NCBI GenBank assembly: GCA_038858525.1
Contig: JAWCFL010000008.1
Coordinates: 42,773 to 64,619 of the forward strand
Length of the DNA: 21,847 bases
Reading direction: 5' to 3'
DNA from: Candidatus Jordarchaeales archaeon
GTDB taxonomy: Archaea; Asgardarchaeota; Jordiarchaeia; Jordiarchaeales; Freyrarchaeaceae
In this document: positions 2 through 9,209 of the stretch, one piece after another
How the letters are laid out: each line of letters opens with the position of its first letter
Numbering within the stretch: position 1 is the first letter of the stretch
Notes under the pieces: generated by a model
Told to the model about the DNA's origin: nothing
Database searches by the model: none
Seen by the model: only the letters and a program-made list of their open reading frames with translations
Position numbers and translations under genes: made by a program

Positions 2-115
2 GAAGGAGGCAAGTGGGTTAGGAAGATACAGGTGGTAAAGATGCGGGGAACAAGTCATGACCTCAACGAACATGTCTTCGAAATAACAAAGGAAGGAATA
101 AAGCTTAAGGATTAA
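2..115 (+). CDS. C-terminal fragment of a KaiC/RAD55-family (RecA-fold) ATPase, truncated by the window start
   Basis: Not in the ORF track. Frame 2 translates EGGKWVRKIQVVKMRGTSHDLNEHVFEITKEGIKLKD* with TAA at 113-115. R-x-I-x-V-x-KMRG-x-x-H...F-x-IT-x-x-GI is the typical KaiC-domain C-terminus, including the KMRG arginine finger. Confidence 0.85.
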   Translation, partial: EGGKWVRKIQVVKMRGTSHDLNEHVFEITKEGIKLKD

Positions 116-148
116 CGCGAGACGCTTTCTCCTCTTAGGTGAAGACTA

Positions 149-1549
149 ATGGAAAAAGGTAATGTTGAGGAGGCATTGAAAGAGGAGGAAACTGTTAAGA
201 GTGGGGTAAATGGTTTAGATGACCTCTTTGGTGGAGGGTTTGACCCGGGAAGCGTTATTCTTCTATCTGGCCCCCCGGGCTCCGGTAAGAGCGTAATGTC
301 GGCTCAGTTTATTTATAATGGAGCGGTGAAGTATGGTGAGGCTGGGCTTTACGTGAACTTCAGTGAGAGCAGAGGCGACTTTATGAGGAACATGGCGAGA
401 TTTAGAATGGACTTTAACCGTCTCGAAGAAGAGGGACTTTTCAGGTTTATTGATGCCTATAACGTTTTCAATAGAAGAAGCCTGGATCTTATACTCTCCC
501 ACGTGTTAGACGAGCTCGCATCCCTCAGAGTTAGGAGGATGGTGCTAGACTCTGTAAACTCCGTTGCGGCAATGATGGATAAAGATGAGCTTAGAGGCTT
601 CATAGCCGCTACCATTCTAGGCATCTGTAAAGTCAACAAGGTCACATGTATACTTATAAGCAACCAGCTCAAGGAAGTGGCTGATGTTAAGCTCGCCGAG
701 CTAGCATTCATGTGTGACACAGTAATAAACCTTGAAGCAAAACTGATAGGGGATACTGTTGAAAGGTTCCTCATTATAAATAAGGCGAGGGGGAAAAATC
801 CTATTGCTTCGAGGGCGGAGTACATTATAACGGATCGAGGAGTAGAGGTTTTTGCGCCCATAGTAAGGCTTCCCGCAGAAAGAGGACGGCTGGATGGTTA
901 CGTGGGCATAGGGCATCCGGAATTCGACGAGAAGGTGTTGATGGGGGGCGTTAGGAGGGGGACCGTGACGCTCATCTCTGGGCCGGGAGGAACAGGGAAA
1001 AGATTTTTGCTAGTCGAGTTTGCCGCTTCAAGTGTTCTCAGGGGAGAGAAGACGCTTTACGCAACGTTTAGGGATCTGAGGAGGGTGGAGGAGTCCTTCA
1101 TAAACCGGGGATACGATGTTAAAGAACTTGAGAAGAGGGGGATGCGATTCGTCGAGTTTTCACCTTTTAGAGTTACCCCTGGGATTATTCTGCTCACGCT
1201 GAAGGAGACGCTGGACGATTTCCAACCCAGTATGGCGGCTGTAGAAGAGGTGGCATCTTTGAAGTGGCTTCCTAGGGAGGATTATTATCGGTTGATAAAC
1301 AAGATGGCAGCCCTCTTTAAGGATTATGGTGTAACTGTTATGATGAGCTCCGAGAGTAATGTAGACGTAAGAGAGACTGACGAGTTTAGGGCGGCTGACA
1401 ATGTGATCTCTGTTTGGAGTGAAAGAGAGGGGAACGAAGCGGTCAGAAAGGTTTGCGTCGTTAAAATGGAGGGGAGAACCCATTATGAGAAAGTAAGAAA
1501 ACTTACTTATGAAGGGGGGGTTAGGGTTGCTGAGCTTTACGAATATTGA
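149..1549 (+). CDS. Two-domain KaiC-like ATPase (RAD55/KaiC family); N-domain intact, C-domain degenerate
   Basis: Both halves start with the KaiC signature (SGVNGLDDLFGGG...G; IGHPEFDEKVLMGGVRRG). N-domain has Walker A GPPGSGKS, YVNFSES, Walker B RMVLDS and KARG. C-domain has GPGGTGKR, AVEEV and KMEG. Confidence 0.9.
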   Translation: MEKGNVEEALKEEETVKSGVNGLDDLFGGGFDPGSVILLSGPPGSGKSVMSAQFIYNGAVKYGEAGLYVNFSESRGDFMRNMARFRMDFNRLEEEGLFRFIDAYNVFNRRSLDLILSHVLDELASLRVRRMVLDSVNSVAAMMDKDELRGFIAATILGICKVNKVTCILISNQLKEVADVKLAELAFMCDTVINLEAKLIGDTVERFLIINKARGKNPIASRAEYIITDRGVEVFAPIVRLPAERGRLDGYVGIGHPEFDEKVLMGGVRRGTVTLISGPGGTGKRFLLVEFAASSVLRGEKTLYATFRDLRRVEESFINRGYDVKELEKRGMRFVEFSPFRVTPGIILLTLKETLDDFQPSMAAVEEVASLKWLPREDYYRLINKMAALFKDYGVTVMMSSESNVDVRETDEFRAADNVISVWSEREGNEAVRKVCVVKMEGRTHYEKVRKLTYEGGVRVAELYEY

Positions 1550-1577
1550 GAAGGGAGTGCAGAATGGGGGGTGAAGC

Positions 1578-2201
1578 TTGTTTAGAGGCGTGATCGTGGT
1601 GAGCTTTGATTACAGGCTTGGACCTATTGTTGAGGCGATGTTCCCTGAGGGGGTTATCCCGAGGGATGCTGTGTGGAACTTTGCTCTGGATATTTGGATG
1701 AGCATATTTTCAAGAGAGGTGACTGAGGATTCAAACCAGAAAGTTTATGGCGACCTTGGAAGACTTGCTATTATCTCTTTCTGCGAGAATAGTGAAAACT
1801 ATGCTCTAATTGCCCTGTTCGATGATGGGGACGGAGGAGCAGTTTGGCAACTTAAAGATGCATTGAAGGAAGTTATGAGTAGGGCGGTGGAAGCGCTTAA
1901 AAAGGGAAGTAGGAGTATCGACGTTGCCCGAAGCGTTTACGATGATATAAACGGACTGATCGCTGGGCCAAGAAAGTTTCCAGTTGAGGTATATGAGAGA
2001 TTCAGGGAGATATATGACGCGCTAGGAAAAGTTTTGAGTGTTTTGAACGAAGTTAAAGATGACGAAGTAAAGGGTAAGCTGCTCAGCACAGTGTCGGAGC
2101 TGACGGACAAGATATCGGATCTTGCGCTCAACCTAGCCTTAACTTGGGGAGACAGAGACATTATAAGTGCGATTCTCCGTAGAGCGGAAGGTAAGAGCTA
2201 A
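1578..2201 (+). CDS. uDENN/longin-like domain protein with C-terminal helical region (paralog A)
   Basis: N-terminal VIVVSFDYRLGPIVEAMFP matches the hydrophobic strand-FD-x3-GP-x-V-x3-(F/Y)P start of uDENN/longin domains (NPR2/NPR3, AVL9, C9orf72 families). Clear paralog of 2855..3499. TTG start preceded by GGGGGTGA. Confidence 0.6.
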   Translation: MFRGVIVVSFDYRLGPIVEAMFPEGVIPRDAVWNFALDIWMSIFSREVTEDSNQKVYGDLGRLAIISFCENSENYALIALFDDGDGGAVWQLKDALKEVMSRAVEALKKGSRSIDVARSVYDDINGLIAGPRKFPVEVYERFREIYDALGKVLSVLNEVKDDEVKGKLLSTVSELTDKISDLALNLALTWGDRDIISAILRRAEGKS

Positions 2202-2216
2202 AATGGAGGAGGAGCA

Positions 2217-2732
2217 TTGCGCCCATCGGAGCTTCAATGCTTCCAGAGGAGGATTGTGCTGAGAGATGGGTCAAGGGTTTTGATCAGGGCTTTGACGCCG
2301 GCGGACGCGGCAAAACTCTTGAAGTTTTACAGTTCGTTGTCGACGGAGACGAGTTACCTGCGCTTCCTCAACTATAGGCCTTCCTCAAGCTGGGTGCTGG
2401 AAGGACTTGCCAACGTCAACTTCGAGGATAATGTTGCCCTTGGAGCCTTCACTGAGAAAGGGGAGTTAATAGGTGACGCGAGGTTCTCGCTCGACAGGAA
2501 GACGGGGAGGGCTGAAATAGGAATAGTGGTTGCTGACGAGTGGCAGGGGAGAGGGCTAGGGCTGAACATGATCCAGACGCTGGGCTATATAGCCTTGAGA
2601 ATGGGTGTTAAAACGCTCTACGCCACAGTATCCCCGGTCAACTATCTTGTGGCCGCAGCCCTGAAGAGCGCGGGTTTCAGAAGAGTCAGAACGGCGCTAC
2701 TAGAGGAAAGGATTTTTGAAGCAGATCTCTAG
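2217..2732 (+). CDS. GNAT N-acetyltransferase resembling the catalytic domain of Pat/PatZ-type protein lysine acetyltransferases
   Basis: LRDGSRVLIRALTPADA...FYSSLSTETSYLRF N-terminus, AEIGIVV strand and acetyl-CoA motif A VADEWQGRGLG. TTG start with GGAGGAGG upstream. Confidence 0.85.
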   Translation: MRPSELQCFQRRIVLRDGSRVLIRALTPADAAKLLKFYSSLSTETSYLRFLNYRPSSSWVLEGLANVNFEDNVALGAFTEKGELIGDARFSLDRKTGRAEIGIVVADEWQGRGLGLNMIQTLGYIALRMGVKTLYATVSPVNYLVAAALKSAGFRRVRTALLEERIFEADL

Positions 2733-2776
2733 CGAAGTTTGAACTCTGTAAAACTAGAACGACGAGTTTCCAAAAA

Positions 2777-2802
2777 ATCGCAATTCTAAAAGAAAAAACT
2801 TA
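2777..2802 (+). promoter_or_regulatory. Putative promoter of 2855..3499: ATCGCAAT element plus A-rich BRE/TATA-like AAAAAACTTA
   Basis: ATCGCAAT at 2777-2784 and AAAAAACTTA at 2793-2802, about 50 bp before the start. The same two elements occur before the longin gene. Confidence 0.5.
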
Positions 2803-2854
2803 AGAGTTTAAAGATATCAACTTAACTTCAAGGGTTTGGAGTGGAGGCGCTCGC

Positions 2855-3499
2855 TTGAGTTCAGGCGTCGAGGTAAGGTTTCAAGTTCAGTGTCGGGGGG
2901 TTATGCTTCTCAAGTTCGATTATGTTGTGGGACCACTGGTGGAGAAAATTTTCCCTAAAGGCATCATAAATGAAGAGTTATTGTGGAATATTGCTCTTGA
3001 CATGTGGATGACTATGGGGTCTAAAAGCATGGAGAAAGGGTACAGCACGATAGTTTTCCTCAGGGATTTTGGAATGTTCGCCTGCTTGGTTTCAGGAGGC
3101 CATGATGAAGCGCCATACGCCATGGCAGCTCTTTTCGACCCAGAGGGTGTAAGCGGGTTTTGGAGCATCAAGGAGGAAGTGATTAGCGTTCTCCTTGATC
3201 ACATTGAAAGAGTTAAGAGAGGAGAGGACGCTGAAAAAGTGGTTAGGGAAGCTTACGACACAATAGTTAAAACCACGTTGGGTTTAACGAGGGCGGAAGC
3301 CTCTAGCTCTTTCCTACATGAGACAACAGATTTCATCACGAGGCTGGTGTCTCATGTTCAAAAAGCAGGCAAATTGGGCGGTGAACTAAAGGCGCTCCTG
3401 AAAAACTACGTGGAGCGGCTTGCAGACGAAGCAAGCAGAGCGGGCGCAGATGAAGTTCTCAAAGGAATTCTTAAGTTAAAGCTTATCCTAGAGACATAA
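2855..3499 (+). CDS. uDENN/longin-like domain protein with C-terminal helical region (paralog B)
   Basis: RGVMLLKFDYVVGPLVEKIFPKG aligns with RGVIVVSFDYRLGPIVEAMFPEG of 1578..2201. Further shared motifs are WNxALDxWM, YAxxALFD and WxxK. Homology begins upstream of the internal ATG at 2903, supporting the TTG start; GGAGG precedes it. Confidence 0.6.
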   Translation: MSSGVEVRFQVQCRGVMLLKFDYVVGPLVEKIFPKGIINEELLWNIALDMWMTMGSKSMEKGYSTIVFLRDFGMFACLVSGGHDEAPYAMAALFDPEGVSGFWSIKEEVISVLLDHIERVKRGEDAEKVVREAYDTIVKTTLGLTRAEASSSFLHETTDFITRLVSHVQKAGKLGGELKALLKNYVERLADEASRAGADEVLKGILKLKLILET

Positions 3500-3657
3500 A
3501 AACAGGAAAATTAATGTTTATTAAGAAAAACTCTAATTTTCTAAGATTTCCCAGCAAAAAATTTACGCTCTTCATATGAATTACTTCTTATTTTCGCCTG
3601 TTTTTACTCAATTTATTTTAATAATTTGGTTTAAAAATTATATTTTTTATAATAATG

Positions 3658-3681
3658 ATTGCGATATCTCTTTATCGCAAT
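3658..3681. promoter_or_regulatory. Perfect inverted repeat ATTGCGATA-N6-TATCGCAAT, candidate transcription-factor site upstream of the longin promoter
   Basis: 9-bp arms at 3658-3666 and 3673-3681, 10 bp upstream of AAAAAACTTATATT (3692-3705). Confidence 0.55.
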
Positions 3682-3690
3682 AGCTTCCCC

Positions 3691-3708
3691 CAAAAAACTT
3701 ATATTAAC
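3691..3708 (+). promoter_or_regulatory. BRE/TATA-like promoter of the longin gene
   Basis: CAAAAAACTTATATTAAC about 45-60 bp before the ATG at 3753. Confidence 0.55.
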
Positions 3709-3752
3709 AGAGAAACCTTAAGAATTAACAGGAAACCCCGCGGGGACTAGGA

Positions 3753-4244
3753 ATGATACATAACGTTTACATTATGAGGAGGAGCGGCGAGTGCCTGATA
3801 AGCCGAAAGTATGGTAGTCTCGAGGCGGATGATGACCTCGTCACAGGATTCCTCAGCGCCATACTCAACTTCGGAGAGCAGATCGACGGAGAGCGAGTTG
3901 AAAGTATAGTAATGGGCAACAAGAAGTTCGTCTACACAGCTATGAACGACATCATATTTATAGCATACGCAGACAAGGATGACCCAGTTAAGGAAAGCTT
4001 AGAGCTCATAGGGCAAAAGTTCATGGAGAAGTACGGTGAAGCGCTCAGAGAATGGAAGGGAGATAAAAGCATTTTCGAGGATTTCATGAAAACTATGGAT
4101 GAAGTACTGGGCGAAGAGGGAAGAGGCAGAGACATGAAGATGGATGACGTATTTGAGAAGCTAAAGAAAGGCGCGATATCAGCAACGGAAGCATCACAAC
4201 AACTCGTCGATTTCTTCCTCAAAAAAGTCAAAGGAAGCAAATAA
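3753..4244 (+). CDS. Longin-domain protein (AP-sigma/sedlin-like, Asgard type) with a SHOCT-like C-terminal helix pair
   Basis: MIHNVYIMRRSGECLISRKY (beta-hairpin start as in AP-complex sigma subunits), DDDLVTGFLSAILNF helix, IIFIAYAD strand and FMEKY...WKGDKSIFEDF tail are all typical of archaeal longins. Tail DVFEKLKKGAISATEA. Confidence 0.8.
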   Translation: MIHNVYIMRRSGECLISRKYGSLEADDDLVTGFLSAILNFGEQIDGERVESIVMGNKKFVYTAMNDIIFIAYADKDDPVKESLELIGQKFMEKYGEALREWKGDKSIFEDFMKTMDEVLGEEGRGRDMKMDDVFEKLKKGAISATEASQQLVDFFLKKVKGSK

Positions 4245-4345
4245 GAGAAGAAGAGAAGGCGAATATGGAGGAATCCAGCCACCATAGTGGAAATTTTCAC
4301 GTTTTAGTATCCTAAAGTAGTATTCTGAAGGTTGTTTATTTTTGT

Positions 4346-4367
4346 GGTTAAATTCGGGTTAAATTCG
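4346..4367. repeat. 11-bp tandem duplication (GGTTAAATTCG)x2 between the convergent longin and roadblock genes
   Basis: Exact copies at 4346-4356 and 4357-4367. Confidence 0.8.
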
Positions 4368-4381
4368 TTTTATGGATTCTG

Positions 4382-4756
4382 TTAGAATAGTTTTAGGAGT
4401 TTTTCTTTTGTTGTTGTTAACTCCGTTATGATTAATCCCATGTTGGTGTCTGGTCTGGCGACCGCGGCGAGAAGGTGCTTGTCATCTACTCCCATTATCA
4501 CTATTGTTCCCGCTTTGCCGCTCACCATGATGCGTTGAATGTTTCCCAGGGTTAGTTCTTTGACCGCTCTGGCTCCTATGTTGTAGATGGCGGCGCCCAT
4601 TGCTGCGATAAGCCCCTCGTCTCCATGTTTTATTGCTGATGCTAGAACGAGACCGTCTTTCCTGATGACTGCTGATGCTTCTATGTCTGGGTCAGATGCC
4701 TCCATTTCTTCTAATGCGTTTACCAGCTTTTCTTTAAGAGCCTTCATGTTCATCAT
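4382..4756 (-). CDS. Roadblock/LC7 (MglB/LAMTOR-like) domain protein
   Basis: DIEASAVIRKDGLVLAS, LIAAMGAAIYNIGARAVKEL, GNIQRIMVSGKAGTIVIM, LLAAVARPDTNMGLI; 124 aa, canonical roadblock pattern. Confidence 0.93.
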   Translation of the reverse strand: MMNMKALKEKLVNALEEMEASDPDIEASAVIRKDGLVLASAIKHGDEGLIAAMGAAIYNIGARAVKELTLGNIQRIMVSGKAGTIVIMGVDDKHLLAAVARPDTNMGLIITELTTTKEKLLKLF

Positions 4757-4790
4757 CCTTTAAACCGGCGTTCAATAAAACTTGAAGTGT

Positions 4791-4833
4791 TTTATATTTA
4801 AATTTTTCGTATTGTTATGCGATTTTAACAATA
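4791..4833 (-). promoter_or_regulatory. Roadblock promoter: BRE/TATA (CGAAAAATTTAAATATAAA) with an adjacent upstream inverted repeat TATTGTTA-N8-TAACAATA containing ATCGCA
   Basis: Minus strand reads AAAATCGCATAACAATACGAAAAATTTAAATATAAA. Repeat arms at 4810-4817 and 4826-4833. Confidence 0.55.
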
Positions 4834-4863: not shown

Positions 4864-5640
4864 TCACCTACCCTTTAGGCGCCTAACATACTCCCTCACT
4901 CTTCCCGGAACATCCTCGTTCTGGATGCATATCCTCTGAGCTAAAGCCGTGTAGTTGAGCAGCGTCTCCATGTCTACGTCAAAGCTTAAGTTCAGTATTT
5001 TTTTGGAGAGGATGACGGCGAGGGAACTGTTCATCATTATTGCCTTAGCCGTGGCGAGAACCTCCTCTTCAAGCTTGCCGGAAGGGACAACTTTGTTAAC
5101 TAGGCCTATCCTTTCAGCCTCACGAGCGTCTATTAGCTTAGCTGTCATCACCAGCTCCTTGGCTTTTCCTAAGCCCACTATGCGAGGGAGCCTCTGGCAG
5201 CCTGCTAGGTCCGGCACTATCCCAACGGCGACTTCCGGGAGTCCGAAGATGGCGTTTTCAGATGCTATTCTTAAGTCGCATACGAGGGTTAACTCTAGGC
5301 CGCCGCCTAAGGCTGGCCCATTGATGGCCGCTATCACTGGCTTCTCTGATGACTCGATCTGGCTGTAGATTCCCTGGGCGAGCCTTGTCGCCTCATACAG
5401 TTCGCTTAAGCCCATTTTTCCGAGCTCCTCGAGGAGGCTGAAGTCCATTCCCGAGGAAAAGGCTTTCCCAGCGCCAGTCAGAACAATCGTTCTCACGTCC
5501 TCATCGCGCCCGGCAATTTTGAATGCTTCGGCCAGCTCCATTAGCATCTTGGAGTTTATGGCGTTCAGCACTTCAGGCCTATTAAGAACTATCCTCGCTA
5601 TGCCTTCACTTTTTTCGTAAGAAACAGTCTCAAATTTCAA
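4864..5640 (-). CDS. Enoyl-CoA hydratase/isomerase (crotonase family)
   Basis: ARIVLNRPEVLNAI, AFSSGMD oxyanion motif, KPVIAAINGPALGGGLEL and FGLPEVAVG. Both catalytic glutamates are present. Confidence 0.93.
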   Translation of the reverse strand: MKFETVSYEKSEGIARIVLNRPEVLNAINSKMLMELAEAFKIAGRDEDVRTIVLTGAGKAFSSGMDFSLLEELGKMGLSELYEATRLAQGIYSQIESSEKPVIAAINGPALGGGLELTLVCDLRIASENAIFGLPEVAVGIVPDLAGCQRLPRIVGLGKAKELVMTAKLIDAREAERIGLVNKVVPSGKLEEEVLATAKAIMMNSSLAVILSKKILNLSFDVDMETLLNYTALAQRICIQNEDVPGRVREYVRRLKGR

Positions 5641-5692
5641 GCTAATCCCTCCAACACTAGCTAAGTTTTCCGCTGAAAGGGTATAAGGCTTT

Positions 5693-6571
5693 CTAGTAGA
5701 ACTCTTTATCTAAAGGATGGAATAACTTGAAGTATGAGAGAGGTTGCCTCGACAGCTTCACAACTTGGCGGGCGAGCCTCTTGATCGTCTTCTTGGAGTG
5801 AGACAGGTATGGAAGAATGGGGCGTGTCCCTTTCATTTTGACGATGTATGCAAGGACATTTATCGCGGCAACCCTTAAACGGGGGTTATCTGAAAGGAGC
5901 GCCAGTTTCATAATGGGCTTAACCACTCTCTCGTCCCCTATGCGGGCCGCTAGTCCCAAGTGTTCCACTGTAAAGTCACCTTTCTCCAATGCTGAAACGA
6001 TTATGTCGTTAGCTCTATCATCTCCGAGGTCCACGAGAGCCATTAGTGCTGCCGTGGAAAGCTGCCTGTCTCCTGAAACTCTCTGAAGAAAGCTCCATAC
6101 TAGGTCTGCCGCCTTCTCGTCCCTCAGCACGCCGAGAACTACACATGCCTGAGCCTTAACGCTGTCCGGAAGCTCGTCAAAAACGCTTATGATATTCTCG
6201 GTCACTGGTAATCCGTTCTCCAAGCCGAGCTTTCCTAAGGCTACCAGTAGGTCGCCGCTAACCTTCTCGTATGATGGCTCTCTCAGCAGCGAGAGAATCT
6301 TTTCCCGTATTTCACTGTTCCTGGCGAGCTCCGCAAGTTTGGACACCGCTTCAAGCCTAGCGAGACCCCTCGCCTCAGATATTAGGGGGAGAAGCTCATC
6401 AATTGAGGAAGCCTTTGAGATCGAGGAAATAAGGGCGCCTTCACCCTTTTCAGGAGGCTTAAGTGCTAAGGCGGCTTCTAGCTCAGACTTAAACCATGGG
6501 AGAAGAAGGCTTCTTAAAGCCACGTAGGGACTTATGGATAACTGTGACTCTGCGGCTTCCACCTGCACCAC
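5693..6571 (-). CDS. HEAT/PBS-lyase-like repeat (alpha-solenoid) protein
   Basis: Repeated units such as ARLEAVSKL, VKAQACVVLGVLRDEKAADLV, STAALMALVDLGDDRA, LAARIGDERVVKPI and LRVAAINVLAYI. Confidence 0.75.
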   Translation of the reverse strand: MVQVEAAESQLSISPYVALRSLLLPWFKSELEAALALKPPEKGEGALISSISKASSIDELLPLISEARGLARLEAVSKLAELARNSEIREKILSLLREPSYEKVSGDLLVALGKLGLENGLPVTENIISVFDELPDSVKAQACVVLGVLRDEKAADLVWSFLQRVSGDRQLSTAALMALVDLGDDRANDIIVSALEKGDFTVEHLGLAARIGDERVVKPIMKLALLSDNPRLRVAAINVLAYIVKMKGTRPILPYLSHSKKTIKRLARQVVKLSRQPLSYFKLFHPLDKEFY

Positions 6572-6656
6572 ACTCCAATCTAGCCTTTAAAGGACTAAAT
6601 TTCGGATTCCTGTTTGGTTGCCAGCCTTGAAAAGGTTTCCTTGCCTCTGATAAAAT

Positions 6657-7736
6657 TTACCGGTTTCGCCTTTTTCCTTCCAGTATGGCCATGCCGAGTT
6701 CTGCCGCTCTGTTGAATGGTTCTTCCCACTTCTCCCTCAGTTTGACTGTTATTGCATTTGCTGGGCATGTTGTGGCGCATAAGCCGCATCCGAGGCATCT
6801 TTCCTCGTTAACTATCGCTGTCTCCTCAAGAGTTATCGCCCCAACAGGACACCTCTCAATGCATGTCCCGCACCCTATGCAGGAGTCTTGGTCAACTACA
6901 GACCGGAATATTGCGTTGATGTACTTGTGAACCTCATAACCCTTCTTCGTTATTCCTTTGAGGGAAGCGCAACAACAAGGGCAACAATTGCACACGTTTG
7001 AAAGATGCTTCGCGTTCACTGAAGCGTGAACCAGCCCCGCCTCGTCGGCCTCCCTTATTATCCTCACAGCTTCGTCGGGCTTTACCTCCTCCGCCCACCC
7101 GTTCTCAATGTAGTACTCTGCTGCGACGCCGAAGCTAAGGCAGGTTTCAATCGGGTAATCGCACCCCTCACCATTAAGCCTAGCCTCCTTCCTGCAAATG
7201 CACTCCGTCACGGCAGCCACACGGGCGCCCCTCACCAACTCCTCCAGTTTAAGGTAGGGGAGAAGCACGGTGCCAGCAGCTATCTTTTCCTCCAGCGGGA
7301 GAACCTTGAATCCCGGAACGTTGCTCGCCCCCATCTCATCCACATAGGCAGTCTCGTAGTACTCCTTGAATAGGCGCGCTAGCTCTTCGTCGATCTTCTT
7401 CACCGAATACTCGTAAAGGCCTATCATGAATGGGGCTGCGTTATAGAATACTTTGCCCTCCCGCCTAATGCGGAACACAAGCCCCTTTCTCGACATCGAC
7501 TCAAGCATCCCTGCAAGGTCTTTCTCGTCTATACCGGTGCGCCCAGCTATCTGAGAGACTTCCTCAGGAAAAGGTGAAAGAAGAACGAAGAGGCGCGCCT
7601 CATCCTCGCTAAAAAGCCTCCTGAGGATCTTTAACTCCACACCGCCGGGAGTGGCTGGGAGACCTAGAGGAAACTTGTCCAGAAACTCACGTAGCTTCAC
7701 ATAAACATTATCAGACAAGGCAACCACCAGACTCAA
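6657..7736 (-). CDS. 4Fe-4S dicluster protein with N-terminal winged helix and central Cys-rich domain; function unknown
   Basis: C-terminal CIGCGTCIERCP and CLGCGLCATTCP ferredoxin motifs, central CICR...C...C and CNCCPCCC, N-terminal ILRRLFSEDEA...IAGRTG...LESMSRKGLV. The start may be slightly downstream. Confidence 0.85.
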   Translation of the reverse strand: MSLVVALSDNVYVKLREFLDKFPLGLPATPGGVELKILRRLFSEDEARLFVLLSPFPEEVSQIAGRTGIDEKDLAGMLESMSRKGLVFRIRREGKVFYNAAPFMIGLYEYSVKKIDEELARLFKEYYETAYVDEMGASNVPGFKVLPLEEKIAAGTVLLPYLKLEELVRGARVAAVTECICRKEARLNGEGCDYPIETCLSFGVAAEYYIENGWAEEVKPDEAVRIIREADEAGLVHASVNAKHLSNVCNCCPCCCASLKGITKKGYEVHKYINAIFRSVVDQDSCIGCGTCIERCPVGAITLEETAIVNEERCLGCGLCATTCPANAITVKLREKWEEPFNRAAELGMAILEGKRRNR

Positions 7737-8009
7737 GAAAAATAGAAAAAGGGTATTTAATAATTCCGAAAAGAATTATTCTTCCACGTTAACCTCGGTG
7801 ATACGCCGAAAAAGCATTCCTACTTTGCGTTCAAACGATTCAAGTTGTCTCCTCACATATTTGCCACTTCACTCATGCTAGGTCACATGTTTGAGATAAA
7901 TTTAACTCACACGCTGTTTTCCGGTGTTATTTTTCTTTGCGACGTTTCTTTTGGTGTGCTTTAAGTGGTTTGTGTGTTTGGTGGGGTTTTGGTGAGTTTT
8001 GCGTTTGGT

Positions 8010-9209
8010 TTATTTGTGGTGGGTTTTTGCTGGTTCTCCTGGTGGGGATATCCATCCCTTGGCGGCTCCTGCTCTGAGCCCTGCTTCAAGAACTGACTCC
8101 GCTCCATCCATGTCTACTAGGGCGATTATGCTTCCCCCCATTCCAGCCCCTGAAAGCTTGGCCCCATAGGCTCCAGCCTCGAGAACCGCACCCCTTATTT
8201 TCTCGAGCGCCGGGTGACTCACCTCGTAAAGGTCCCTCAGAAGCTCATGCTGATAATTAACAACCCAACCCAAAGCCTCCATCCTGGGCAACCCTCTGAC
8301 TTTGTCGAGAAGCTCGTCTCCATCAGGCGGCAGAGGTTCTCCTTTGAGTAGATTCACCGCTATTCTTGTGGAGGAATGCATTTTTAGGGTGAAAATTATG
8401 CGCTTTGCGGCGGTCTCGCCTATCCCTTTAAGGTATGGTTCGAGTTCTCCTACTGAGATCTCCTCCCACTTCGGCTCAAAGTACCTGTAACCCAGTTTGG
8501 CCTTGACGTTTTCTGGGAGGCTCATTTCCATTAGGGCTTTAAGACCCTCATCTATTTCTCTTTGCCTCTTGGGATGTATTGCTGCCGTGGAGTGCCTTAT
8601 GCCCGAGTCGAATACCGTGAAGAGTAGTTCATTAGAGGGGAGACGCTCAACCCTGAATGGCGGCTTACATTCAAGTAGGATTATTCCACCAAAGGCTGAA
8701 CCATACTGGTCTAGGCGGCCACACGGGATCCCCATTTCGTCGTGCTCCGCCACGTATGCTAGCTCCGCCACCTCACGCGTTGAAAGTCCCAGGCCGTAAA
8801 GCTCGTTTAGAAGCGTTAAGAATGACACTTCTAGGGCTGCGCTGCTCGACAGCCCTGAACCCATAGGGATCTCGCTTTCAACCCAAACTTCAGCGCCATC
8901 AGCGCCTTCCAGGAATCCTCTTTTCGCTAAAACGTTGACCACTGCTCGAAAGTAGTCGCCGAACCATCCTCCTCCCACAAGAGGGCTTCCAGCGTGAAAG
9001 GAATCAATGAACCGTTCACCAGAGTCTTTCATGTTTAACGACGCCACCTTAAAATCTGGGGTGTCTCTCAGCCTGCCAGATACATATGTCCTAAGTGTGA
9101 TTGCTACGGGAACGACAGGCAACCCCTTATAGTCTTGGTGAGTGTTCAGGAAGTCTGCTCTTCCCGGGGCGGACGCCAGAACCCATCCTTCACCCTTGGG
9201 CAGCCTCAC
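8010..9209 (-). CDS. galK: Galactokinase-like GHMP kinase
   Basis: GHMP motif PMGSGLSSSAA, APGR...HQDY, CGRLDQ (catalytic Asp) and GAKLSGAGMGG. Divergent from galT. Confidence 0.8.
   Translation of the reverse strand: MRLPKGEGWVLASAPGRADFLNTHQDYKGLPVVPVAITLRTYVSGRLRDTPDFKVASLNMKDSGERFIDSFHAGSPLVGGGWFGDYFRAVVNVLAKRGFLEGADGAEVWVESEIPMGSGLSSSAALEVSFLTLLNELYGLGLSTREVAELAYVAEHDEMGIPCGRLDQYGSAFGGIILLECKPPFRVERLPSNELLFTVFDSGIRHSTAAIHPKRQREIDEGLKALMEMSLPENVKAKLGYRYFEPKWEEISVGELEPYLKGIGETAAKRIIFTLKMHSSTRIAVNLLKGEPLPPDGDELLDKVRGLPRMEALGWVVNYQHELLRDLYEVSHPALEKIRGAVLEAGAYGAKLSGAGMGGSIIALVDMDGAESVLEAGLRAGAAKGWISPPGEPAKTHHK

Follow-up and report, generated by a model that had tools for sequence, protein, structure and literature searches.

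Recurrent pairing of a rare folliculin-like longin family with KaiC-type ATPases in Asgard archaea and its possible link to small GTPases

Two paralogous longin-type proteins, here called A and B, are encoded beside KaiC-type ATPases in a gene cluster at positions 2 to 4,756 of a 21,847-nucleotide stretch of DNA (the window) from Candidatus Jordarchaeales archaeon (assembly GCA_038858525.1, contig JAWCFL010000008.1, positions 42,773 to 64,619). The gene order is KaiC1, KaiC2, longin A, a GNAT acetyltransferase, longin B, a classical longin and a convergent roadblock gene. Our results support a real link between the A/B family and KaiC, beyond inherited synteny, because the pairing recurs in three Asgard lineages with non-orthologous KaiC proteins and is absent from control loci. 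We propose, with a probability of about one half, that the cluster encodes a KaiC-longin module in which an A/B platform relays to a small GTPase encoded elsewhere. KaiC1 and KaiC2 would form an ATP-driven core, and A and B would probably make a dimeric platform that binds the KaiC assembly, as judged by analogy with eukaryotic longin pairs. The downstream partner to which this platform would couple the nucleotide or phosphorylation state of KaiC is most likely a small GTPase from another part of the genome.

The cluster consists of the following genes (aa, amino acids).
2..115, plus strand: C-terminal 37 codons of KaiC1, whose complete gene lies at L001:14169-14888, left of the window across a scaffold gap
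149..1549, plus strand: KaiC2, 466 aa, two KaiC domains (Pfam PF06745, 9.8e-69)
1578..2201, plus strand: longin A, 207 aa, without a Pfam match, assigned from predicted structure and fold search
2217..2732, plus strand: GNAT acetyltransferase, 171 aa (Acetyltransf_3, 8e-11)
2855..3499, plus strand: longin B, 214 aa, paralog of A, without a Pfam match, assigned by BLASTP to A
3753..4244, plus strand: classical longin, 163 aa, with weak longin-type Pfam matches (E 0.02-0.03), assigned by fold search
4382..4756, minus strand: Roadblock/LC7 protein, 124 aa (Robl_LC7, 1.3e-9)

A preliminary description of this DNA, made from its letters alone, had placed the two KaiC genes, A and the GNAT in one direction with gaps of 15-33 bp, and this is accurate: the gaps are 33 bp (KaiC1-KaiC2), 28 bp (KaiC2-A) and 15 bp (A-GNAT). 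B, the classical longin and the convergent roadblock gene are also where it had put them, at wider spacings of 122 bp (GNAT-B), 253 bp (B-classical longin) and 137 bp (classical longin-roadblock). AT-rich spacers with TATA-like runs precede B (122 bp), the classical longin (253 bp) and the roadblock gene (~107 bp). Gap sizes and spacers therefore suggest a single KaiC1-KaiC2-A-GNAT operon followed by three genes with their own promoters. Just left of window base 1 stands a scaffold gap of 98 Ns (L001:14903-15000, on scaffold C8 of genome G000) with ~128 identical bases on both sides. This gap is an assembly artefact, in which overlapping contigs were joined with Ns and the end of KaiC1 was duplicated; hence, KaiC1 is a complete 239-aa gene directly upstream.

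The AlphaFold2 model of A (pLDDT 80.5) shows a beta-beta-alpha-beta-beta-beta-alpha arrangement in residues 1-130, followed by a helical tail (residues 132-207); the start of the protein is backed by orthologs beginning MFRGV. In this model residues 1-130 are predicted to be a GP-motif longin domain of the FLCN/NPRL2/C9orf72/DENN type with a family-specific tail. B is 30% identical to A over 184 aa (BLASTP, E 6e-26) and aligns with the A/B family throughout, and this identity makes it a putative longin as well. An exhaustive structural search (VIA) with the model of A matched the following structures.
Longin domain of the Lokiarchaeal Roadblock-Longin protein, 8yqg: Z 15.6, root mean square deviation (rmsd) 2.2 Å over 126 residues
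Lst4 longin domain, 4zy8: Z 12.5
GATOR1 complex chain, 8fw5_C: Z 11.0
C9orf72-SMCR8, 7o2w_A: Z 10.6
FLCN-FNIP2 complex chains, 6nzd_H and 6ulg_N: Z 10.0
DENND1A, aligned in its uDENN (longin) part alone: Z 9.9

Foldseek agreed with this search, matching A to 8yqg at 1.3e-4, and a search of the ESM Atlas added Asgard longin-GTPase fusions (rmsd 2.2 Å over 131 residues), Avl9 and NPR2. The nearest relatives of the A/B longin domain, by sequence and by structure, are such Asgard longin-GTPase fusions. The earlier label of 'uDENN-like' was right about the longin fold class, as structure prediction and fold search indicate, but goes too far as regards DENN architecture: neither A nor B contains cDENN or dDENN modules or has a DENN Pfam match. 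With FLCN-FNIP, the NPRL2-NPRL3 pair of GATOR1, C9orf72-SMCR8 and the uDENN part of DENN guanine-nucleotide exchange factors, A shares the longin fold (Z 10-12.5 over 113-127 residues), and A and B share the GP motif at the start of strand 2 (residues 15-22), where Gly15 is at least 90% conserved and proline comes next in 17 of 19 family members. Like the eukaryotic heterodimers, A and B are two paralogs, here encoded together. Unlike the eukaryotic complexes, they are 207 and 214 aa long with a helical tail of ~75 residues, show no conserved arginine finger in the family's sequence alignment, lack the additional DENN modules, and have as their steady gene neighbour a KaiC ATPase rather than a Rag or Arf GTPase.

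The GP motif defines longins of the GTPase-activating protein (GAP) type and also an Asgard 'FLCN/SMCR8-type' class (PMC12290439, Traffic 2025). A and B share the phylum and the motif with this class and with 8yqg, the best structural match. However, the published class is described with an arginine finger and without a KaiC context, whereas A and B belong to a separate, rare clade with a helical tail and KaiC neighbours. The family amounts to 17 representative clusters at E<1e-3 among 1.84 billion proteins; longer, fused forms were not found in a word-indexed search with the family alignment, which is a weak type of search.

The evidence for pairing with KaiC comes from a comparison of 400 Asgard genomes, in which strong A/B matches are confined to five family-level lineages. 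Distant loci were annotated with profiles built from this genome's own proteins; f1 denotes the family of this archaeon and f2 the sister family of the same order. Within f1 the whole 30-kb region is syntenic, including the UDG, MFS, YjbQ, hydratase, HEAT, ferredoxin-TrmB and galactokinase genes, and because these unrelated flanking genes are syntenic too, gene order inside f1 is uninformative on function. The immediate neighbours of A/B genes include a KaiC-family gene in f1, in f4 (genomes G002 and G004) and in f6 (G006, G007, G009 and the metagenome contigs L010/L011). In G002 and G004 alike, a KaiC1-type ATPase gene is directly next to a tandem pair of A/B genes. In f6, an A/B gene immediately follows a GvpD-like two-domain KaiC of 468-473 aa, a second A/B gene is divergent, and a third, shorter copy is found with a Ras-like GTPase 2-4 kb further along. 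A short A/B copy in f5 lies 3.6 kb from a KaiC1-type gene. The f4 and f5 partners are 45-50% identical to KaiC1, with a second paralog scoring marginally higher in G002, and the ortholog of the f6 partner in the present genome is C41:6320-7744. On these sequence comparisons, the KaiC partners across lineages appear to be non-orthologous paralogs.

With 12-26 KaiC matches per genome of 1.9-2.8 Mb, we estimate the chance of finding KaiC within ~0.5 kb of an A/B gene at 2-3% per lineage; recurrence in three independent lineages would then be an event of ~1e-4, even when the selection of three lineages out of five is taken into account. As a control, the flanks of seven loci with more distant relatives of the A/B longin domain, mostly longin-GTPase fusions, contained no KaiC. 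A maximum-likelihood tree places the A/B family apart from the longin-GTPase fusions (100/100) and joins f1 A, f1 B and the f6 member downstream of KaiC in one clade (85/82). The preliminary description had suggested that both longin and roadblock proteins couple to KaiC and had pointed to gene-neighbourhood conservation across Asgard genomes as a check. The longin half of this suggestion gains support from adjacency in f1, f4 and f6, but the roadblock gene, which has its own upstream region, is unlinked outside f1 and is, like the GNAT gene, a local addition.

In the f3-type lineage (L045:7699-10295; L012, L013 and L014), the A/B gene is flanked not by KaiC but by conserved uncharacterized proteins of 267 aa and ~301 aa. 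These belong to no Pfam family and resemble neither one another nor the cluster proteins; they may stand in for KaiC as partners of A/B.

Both KaiC proteins of the cluster are clear members of their family. KaiC1 has a single KaiC domain (Pfam 1.2e-71; 241.2 bits versus a cut-off of 26.6) in which Walker A (GGTGTGKT), the catalytic EE pair and Walker B are intact, as they are in the f4 and f5 relatives in a motif alignment. KaiC2 scores 231.7 bits over its two domains against PF06745 (cut-off 26.6) and matches KaiC chains in the PDB at 4e-48; its orthologs (>50% identity) are confined to f1. The N-terminal domain of KaiC2 keeps Walker A and B and has SE in place of the EE pair. The C-terminal domain is degenerate, with GKR, with RD in place of EE and with Glu for the Walker B Asp; across orthologs GK is followed by R, S or K, and Glu replaces the Walker B Asp in three of four. 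This domain is probably nucleotide-binding or purely structural. KaiC2 shares its two-domain form with KaiC of the cyanobacterial KaiABC clock, but its C-terminal domain lacks the catalytic glutamates, and its scores fall below the cut-offs of the circadian KaiC equivalogs (NCBIfam PRK09302 and TIGR02655; 207.9 bits versus 408 and 111.7 versus 546). KaiC1 is likewise under these cut-offs, and no KaiA or KaiB homologs were seen among the scanned open reading frames (ORFs) or the called genes of orthologous loci. Archaeal KaiC-like ATPases have been proposed as signal-transduction hubs (Makarova, Galperin and Koonin 2017, mBio). So far as that proposal is reflected in the papers citing it, such hubs likewise comprise several KaiC paralogs per genome, operons with small putative signalling partners, and inactivated KaiC domains fused to other signalling modules.

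In the relatives labelled Freyarchaeota, KaiC1 is preceded by an additional two-domain KaiC (448 aa) and a 122-aa ORF (L008:3825-5532), and a further ORF of 144 aa lies on the minus strand between B and the classical longin (L008:10083-10517). Other KaiC matches in the present genome were considered and set aside: one on C1, near a roadblock gene, is RadA and hence irrelevant, and a KaiC pair on C41 is surrounded by metabolic genes, with no longin or roadblock gene.

A connection with small GTPases is suggested by related clusters and by other loci of this genome. The Ras/Arf/Rag type of GTPase gene is absent from the whole 64.6-kb scaffold C8 and from the 15 kb upstream, which extends the earlier observation that the window has none and answers the call to inspect the sequence to its left. 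A small GTPase gene of the kind found in MglAB or Rag-Ragulator modules, absent from this cluster, is present in the f4 and f6 clusters. In f4, G003 and G004 have a Rag/Gtr1-like GTPase beside the A/B genes (Gtr1_RagA, 4e-22). The complete genome G004 has a supercluster (L048:8039-16510; G004:C1, ~2.316-2.325 Mb) of KaiC, a 74-aa ORF and two A/B longins facing this GTPase; behind it follow a further KaiC, a tandem of three V4R proteins, one longin-like and one longin-winged helix-turn-helix-like protein. The f6 cluster has a Ras-like GTPase. The preliminary description had placed an ATPase at the centre of the module instead of a GTPase; this is not established, as related clusters often include a Rag- or Ras-like GTPase and the nearest longin relatives are GTPase-fused.

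Elsewhere in the same genome, the C4 locus (L002:4495-11071 = G000:C4:96494-103070) encodes a KaiC of 264 aa, a 420-aa fusion protein (C4:97304-98566), a roadblock protein, a KaiC-like protein of 271 aa, a TRAPP/V4R-like protein and two Ras-like GTPases. The fusion consists of an N-terminal KaiC domain without Walker A and a C-terminal GTPase with the motifs GPYNAGKT, TPGQ and NKQD, which we take to be an MglA-like pattern. All 10 of the order's other genomes encode it at full length, and at E 1e-35 no match came from outside the order. Given this conserved fusion, KaiC folds and small GTPase/roadblock modules are therefore physically joined in this lineage. Among genes at other loci, that for a 304-aa protein at G000:C1:87631-88545 (minus strand) encodes a candidate client GTPase; the N-terminal 144 residues of this protein are the genome's best match (30% identity) to the f4 Rag/Gtr1-like GTPases, and the Pfam Ras search missed it. 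We also considered the f4 supercluster as a merger of the C8 and C4 loci of this genome and rejected the idea, the best Rag-like match being this C1 protein and not the C4 genes. In total, the 2.09-Mb genome (G000) contains 16 roadblock matches, 12-17 small-GTPase matches and ~7 strong KaiC genes, with canonical roadblock-GTPase clusters on C6.

Several observations weigh against a KaiC-longin module that relays to a small GTPase. As the scaffold encodes no GTPase, a GTPase role here is proposed by analogy only, and the Ras-like gene of f6 overlaps a TrmB-like regulator gene by 4 bp. The A/B family is absent from the sister family f2 (6 genomes, 87-100% complete), and KaiC is missing from the retrieved flanks of the one f3 copy and of two of the three f5 copies. 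Because no arginine is invariant or near-invariant in any column of the 19-sequence A/B alignment, which is a sequence alignment and not a structural superposition, a classical arginine-finger GAP activity like that of FLCN (R164), NPRL2 (R78) or SMCR8 (R147) is doubtful. Moreover, the physical interaction of A and B with KaiC is one that we only infer, as we do their dimerization and the GTPase output. A complex prediction for A and B with KaiC1 as partner scored 0.00, which says nothing for or against binding.

Some of these observations would be expected if no GTPase were involved. The A/B dimer could act directly on the KaiC P-loop ATPases as an activator, exchange factor or scaffold, the longin platform having been re-used for an NTPase of the RecA/KaiC type. 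This would fit the lack of a GTPase on the scaffold and in the retrieved flanks of G002 and L010/L011, the lack of an arginine finger conserved in the family alignment, and the steadiness of KaiC as a neighbour, which is adjacent to A/B in f1, f4 and f6 where a GTPase is adjacent in f4 and f6. We regard such a switch as rather unlikely, in that all close structural relatives of A/B act on small GTPases, the nearest sequence relatives are fused to them, and GTPase genes sit inside the f4 and f6 clusters. The order-wide KaiC-GTPase fusion also shows KaiC folds and GTPases working together in this lineage. A broader idea, which is at present speculative and which we would hold to be doubtful, is that in Asgard archaea longin dimers of the folliculin/NPRL2 type directly regulate RecA/KaiC-type ATPases or act as their adaptors. 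The GAP longins of eukaryotic nutrient signalling would then have descended from, or once been part of, an ATPase-centred switch in which longin platforms connected KaiC hubs with small GTPases. Such a connection is also suggested by the order-wide fusion of KaiC with an MglA-like GTPase.

It is also conceivable, but clearly improbable, that the genes are co-regulated neighbours whose products form no complex, with A and B regulating a GTPase encoded elsewhere, the KaiC proteins serving an unrelated function, and the adjacency reflecting shared expression conditions or genomic hitch-hiking. Adjacency in three lineages, with differing flanks and differing KaiC paralogs, is difficult to reconcile with this explanation, as are the 28 bp between KaiC2 and A, the position of the f6 gene directly after KaiC and the absence of KaiC from control loci. 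However, local order by itself proves nothing when an entire 30-kb region with unrelated genes is syntenic in f1; B, the classical longin and the roadblock gene have upstream regions of their own; and some A/B copies lack a neighbouring KaiC gene. We hold it highly improbable that the genes are a cassette of anti-virus defence or of a mobile element centred on KaiC-like ATPases, of which KaiC-like P-loop proteins in some candidate defence systems and weak PADLOC matches to mad8 (4e-7 and 9e-10) might be signs: these matches are confined to the Walker A region and cover ~60 residues against a profile of 314 positions, PADLOC matches none of the other proteins of the cluster, no integrase, transposase or nuclease occurs in the scanned window ORFs or the called genes of orthologous loci, and the locus is in stable synteny with housekeeping genes.

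The proposed KaiC-longin module would matter for the reading of Asgard genomes more generally. These genomes encode dozens of longin, roadblock and small-GTPase proteins akin to the trafficking and nutrient-signalling machinery of eukaryotes, with partners unassigned. According to one structural study (PMC10933270), operons of the cultured Lokiarchaeon MK-D1 as a rule do not combine small GTPase genes with those of roadblock, longin or TRAPPC3 proteins; hence, genome layout rarely helps to match GTPases with their regulators. In the present case a KaiC-type ATPase is the recurrent partner, at operon level, of a rare family of folliculin-like longins, and this provides a concrete and testable set of proteins. 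The pairing joins two themes that have been treated separately, the KaiC hubs of archaeal signalling and the longin/GTPase systems older than the eukaryotes. Cooperation of a longin platform with an NTPase is of a known kind, while KaiC as the class of partner is unreported. No paper linking KaiC with longins, or KaiC with Asgard small GTPases, was found in the literature searched, in which the 2017 study of Makarova and colleagues was represented by its citing papers alone; the preliminary description had likewise known of no account of the combination.

The remaining genes of the cluster appear to be less closely tied to this pairing. The GNAT matches Acetyltransf_3 (43.2 bits versus a cut-off of 25.4) and Acetyltransf_1 (1.2e-7), and its translation carries the acetyl-CoA motif QGRGLG (Q/RxxGxG/A). 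A domain-level match to mycobacterial Pat (3.5e-19) aligns in the GNAT domain alone, and the Pat equivalog (NCBIfam NF058543) was not reached (68.8 bits versus a cut-off of 460). When its own profile was run over the distant loci, a GNAT was present in the cluster only in f1, and it is a family-specific accessory that was added locally. The claim that the module is 'tuned by lysine acetylation' is not borne out by this distribution; any acetylation would at best be a lineage-specific extra.

The classical longin may take part in the module. Its AlphaFold2 model (pLDDT 77.6) matched, in the same exhaustive search, 7q3d_C of the CPLANE complex (Z 13.8), Sec22 (13.5), VAMP7 (13.4), Mon1-Ccz1 (13.3) and TRAPP (13.2), and its relatives occur near A/B, KaiC or GTPase genes in f4, f5 and f15 loci. 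We read the roadblock gene (Robl_LC7, PF03259, 38.1 bits versus a cut-off of 23) as a local neighbour outside the conserved module. The genes for an enoyl-CoA hydratase and a HEAT-repeat protein, which are unrelated to it, lie upstream on its strand. Its family was found in 347 of the 400 Asgard genomes, orthologs of at least 61% identity are confined to f1, and the nearest relatives in G002, G004, G006 and G007 are far from the A/B-KaiC locus or on another contig. The protein encoded at 4382-4756 belongs to the same domain family as the roadblock proteins of MglA-MglB and Rag-Ragulator; unlike those systems, it has no GTPase gene beside it, and it has no linkage to A/B-KaiC outside f1.

In one sediment metatranscriptome library, stretches of KaiC2, A, B and the roadblock gene (window positions 182-750, 1187-1377, 1572-1797, 2876-3224 and 4289-4800) were matched by contigs at 97-99% identity. 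This is a weak sign of expression in a close relative, in which DNA carry-over is possible and which is silent on operon structure or level.

The 15 kb upstream contains a YjbQ gene, a 298-aa gene of no known family, an MFS transporter gene, a UDG gene and others. The YjbQ/UPF0047 gene overlaps the start of the 298-aa gene by one base (L001:12630-13957). The 298-aa protein has no Pfam family and no similarity to the cluster proteins or to the 267-aa and 301-aa neighbours in f3; it is kept upstream of KaiC1 in all f1 members examined, and its look-alikes in the ESM Atlas are unnamed clusters from Bacillota and Methanobacteriota. On the other side, window positions 4864-9209 (minus strand) encode an enoyl-CoA hydratase, a HEAT-repeat protein, a 359-aa fusion of a TrmB helix-turn-helix domain with a 4Fe-4S ferredoxin, and a galactokinase-like GHMP kinase; these four genes are unrelated to the module and syntenic within f1. 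The closest homologs are labelled Jordarchaeales or Freyarchaeota, and this DNA is found in hot-spring metagenomes.

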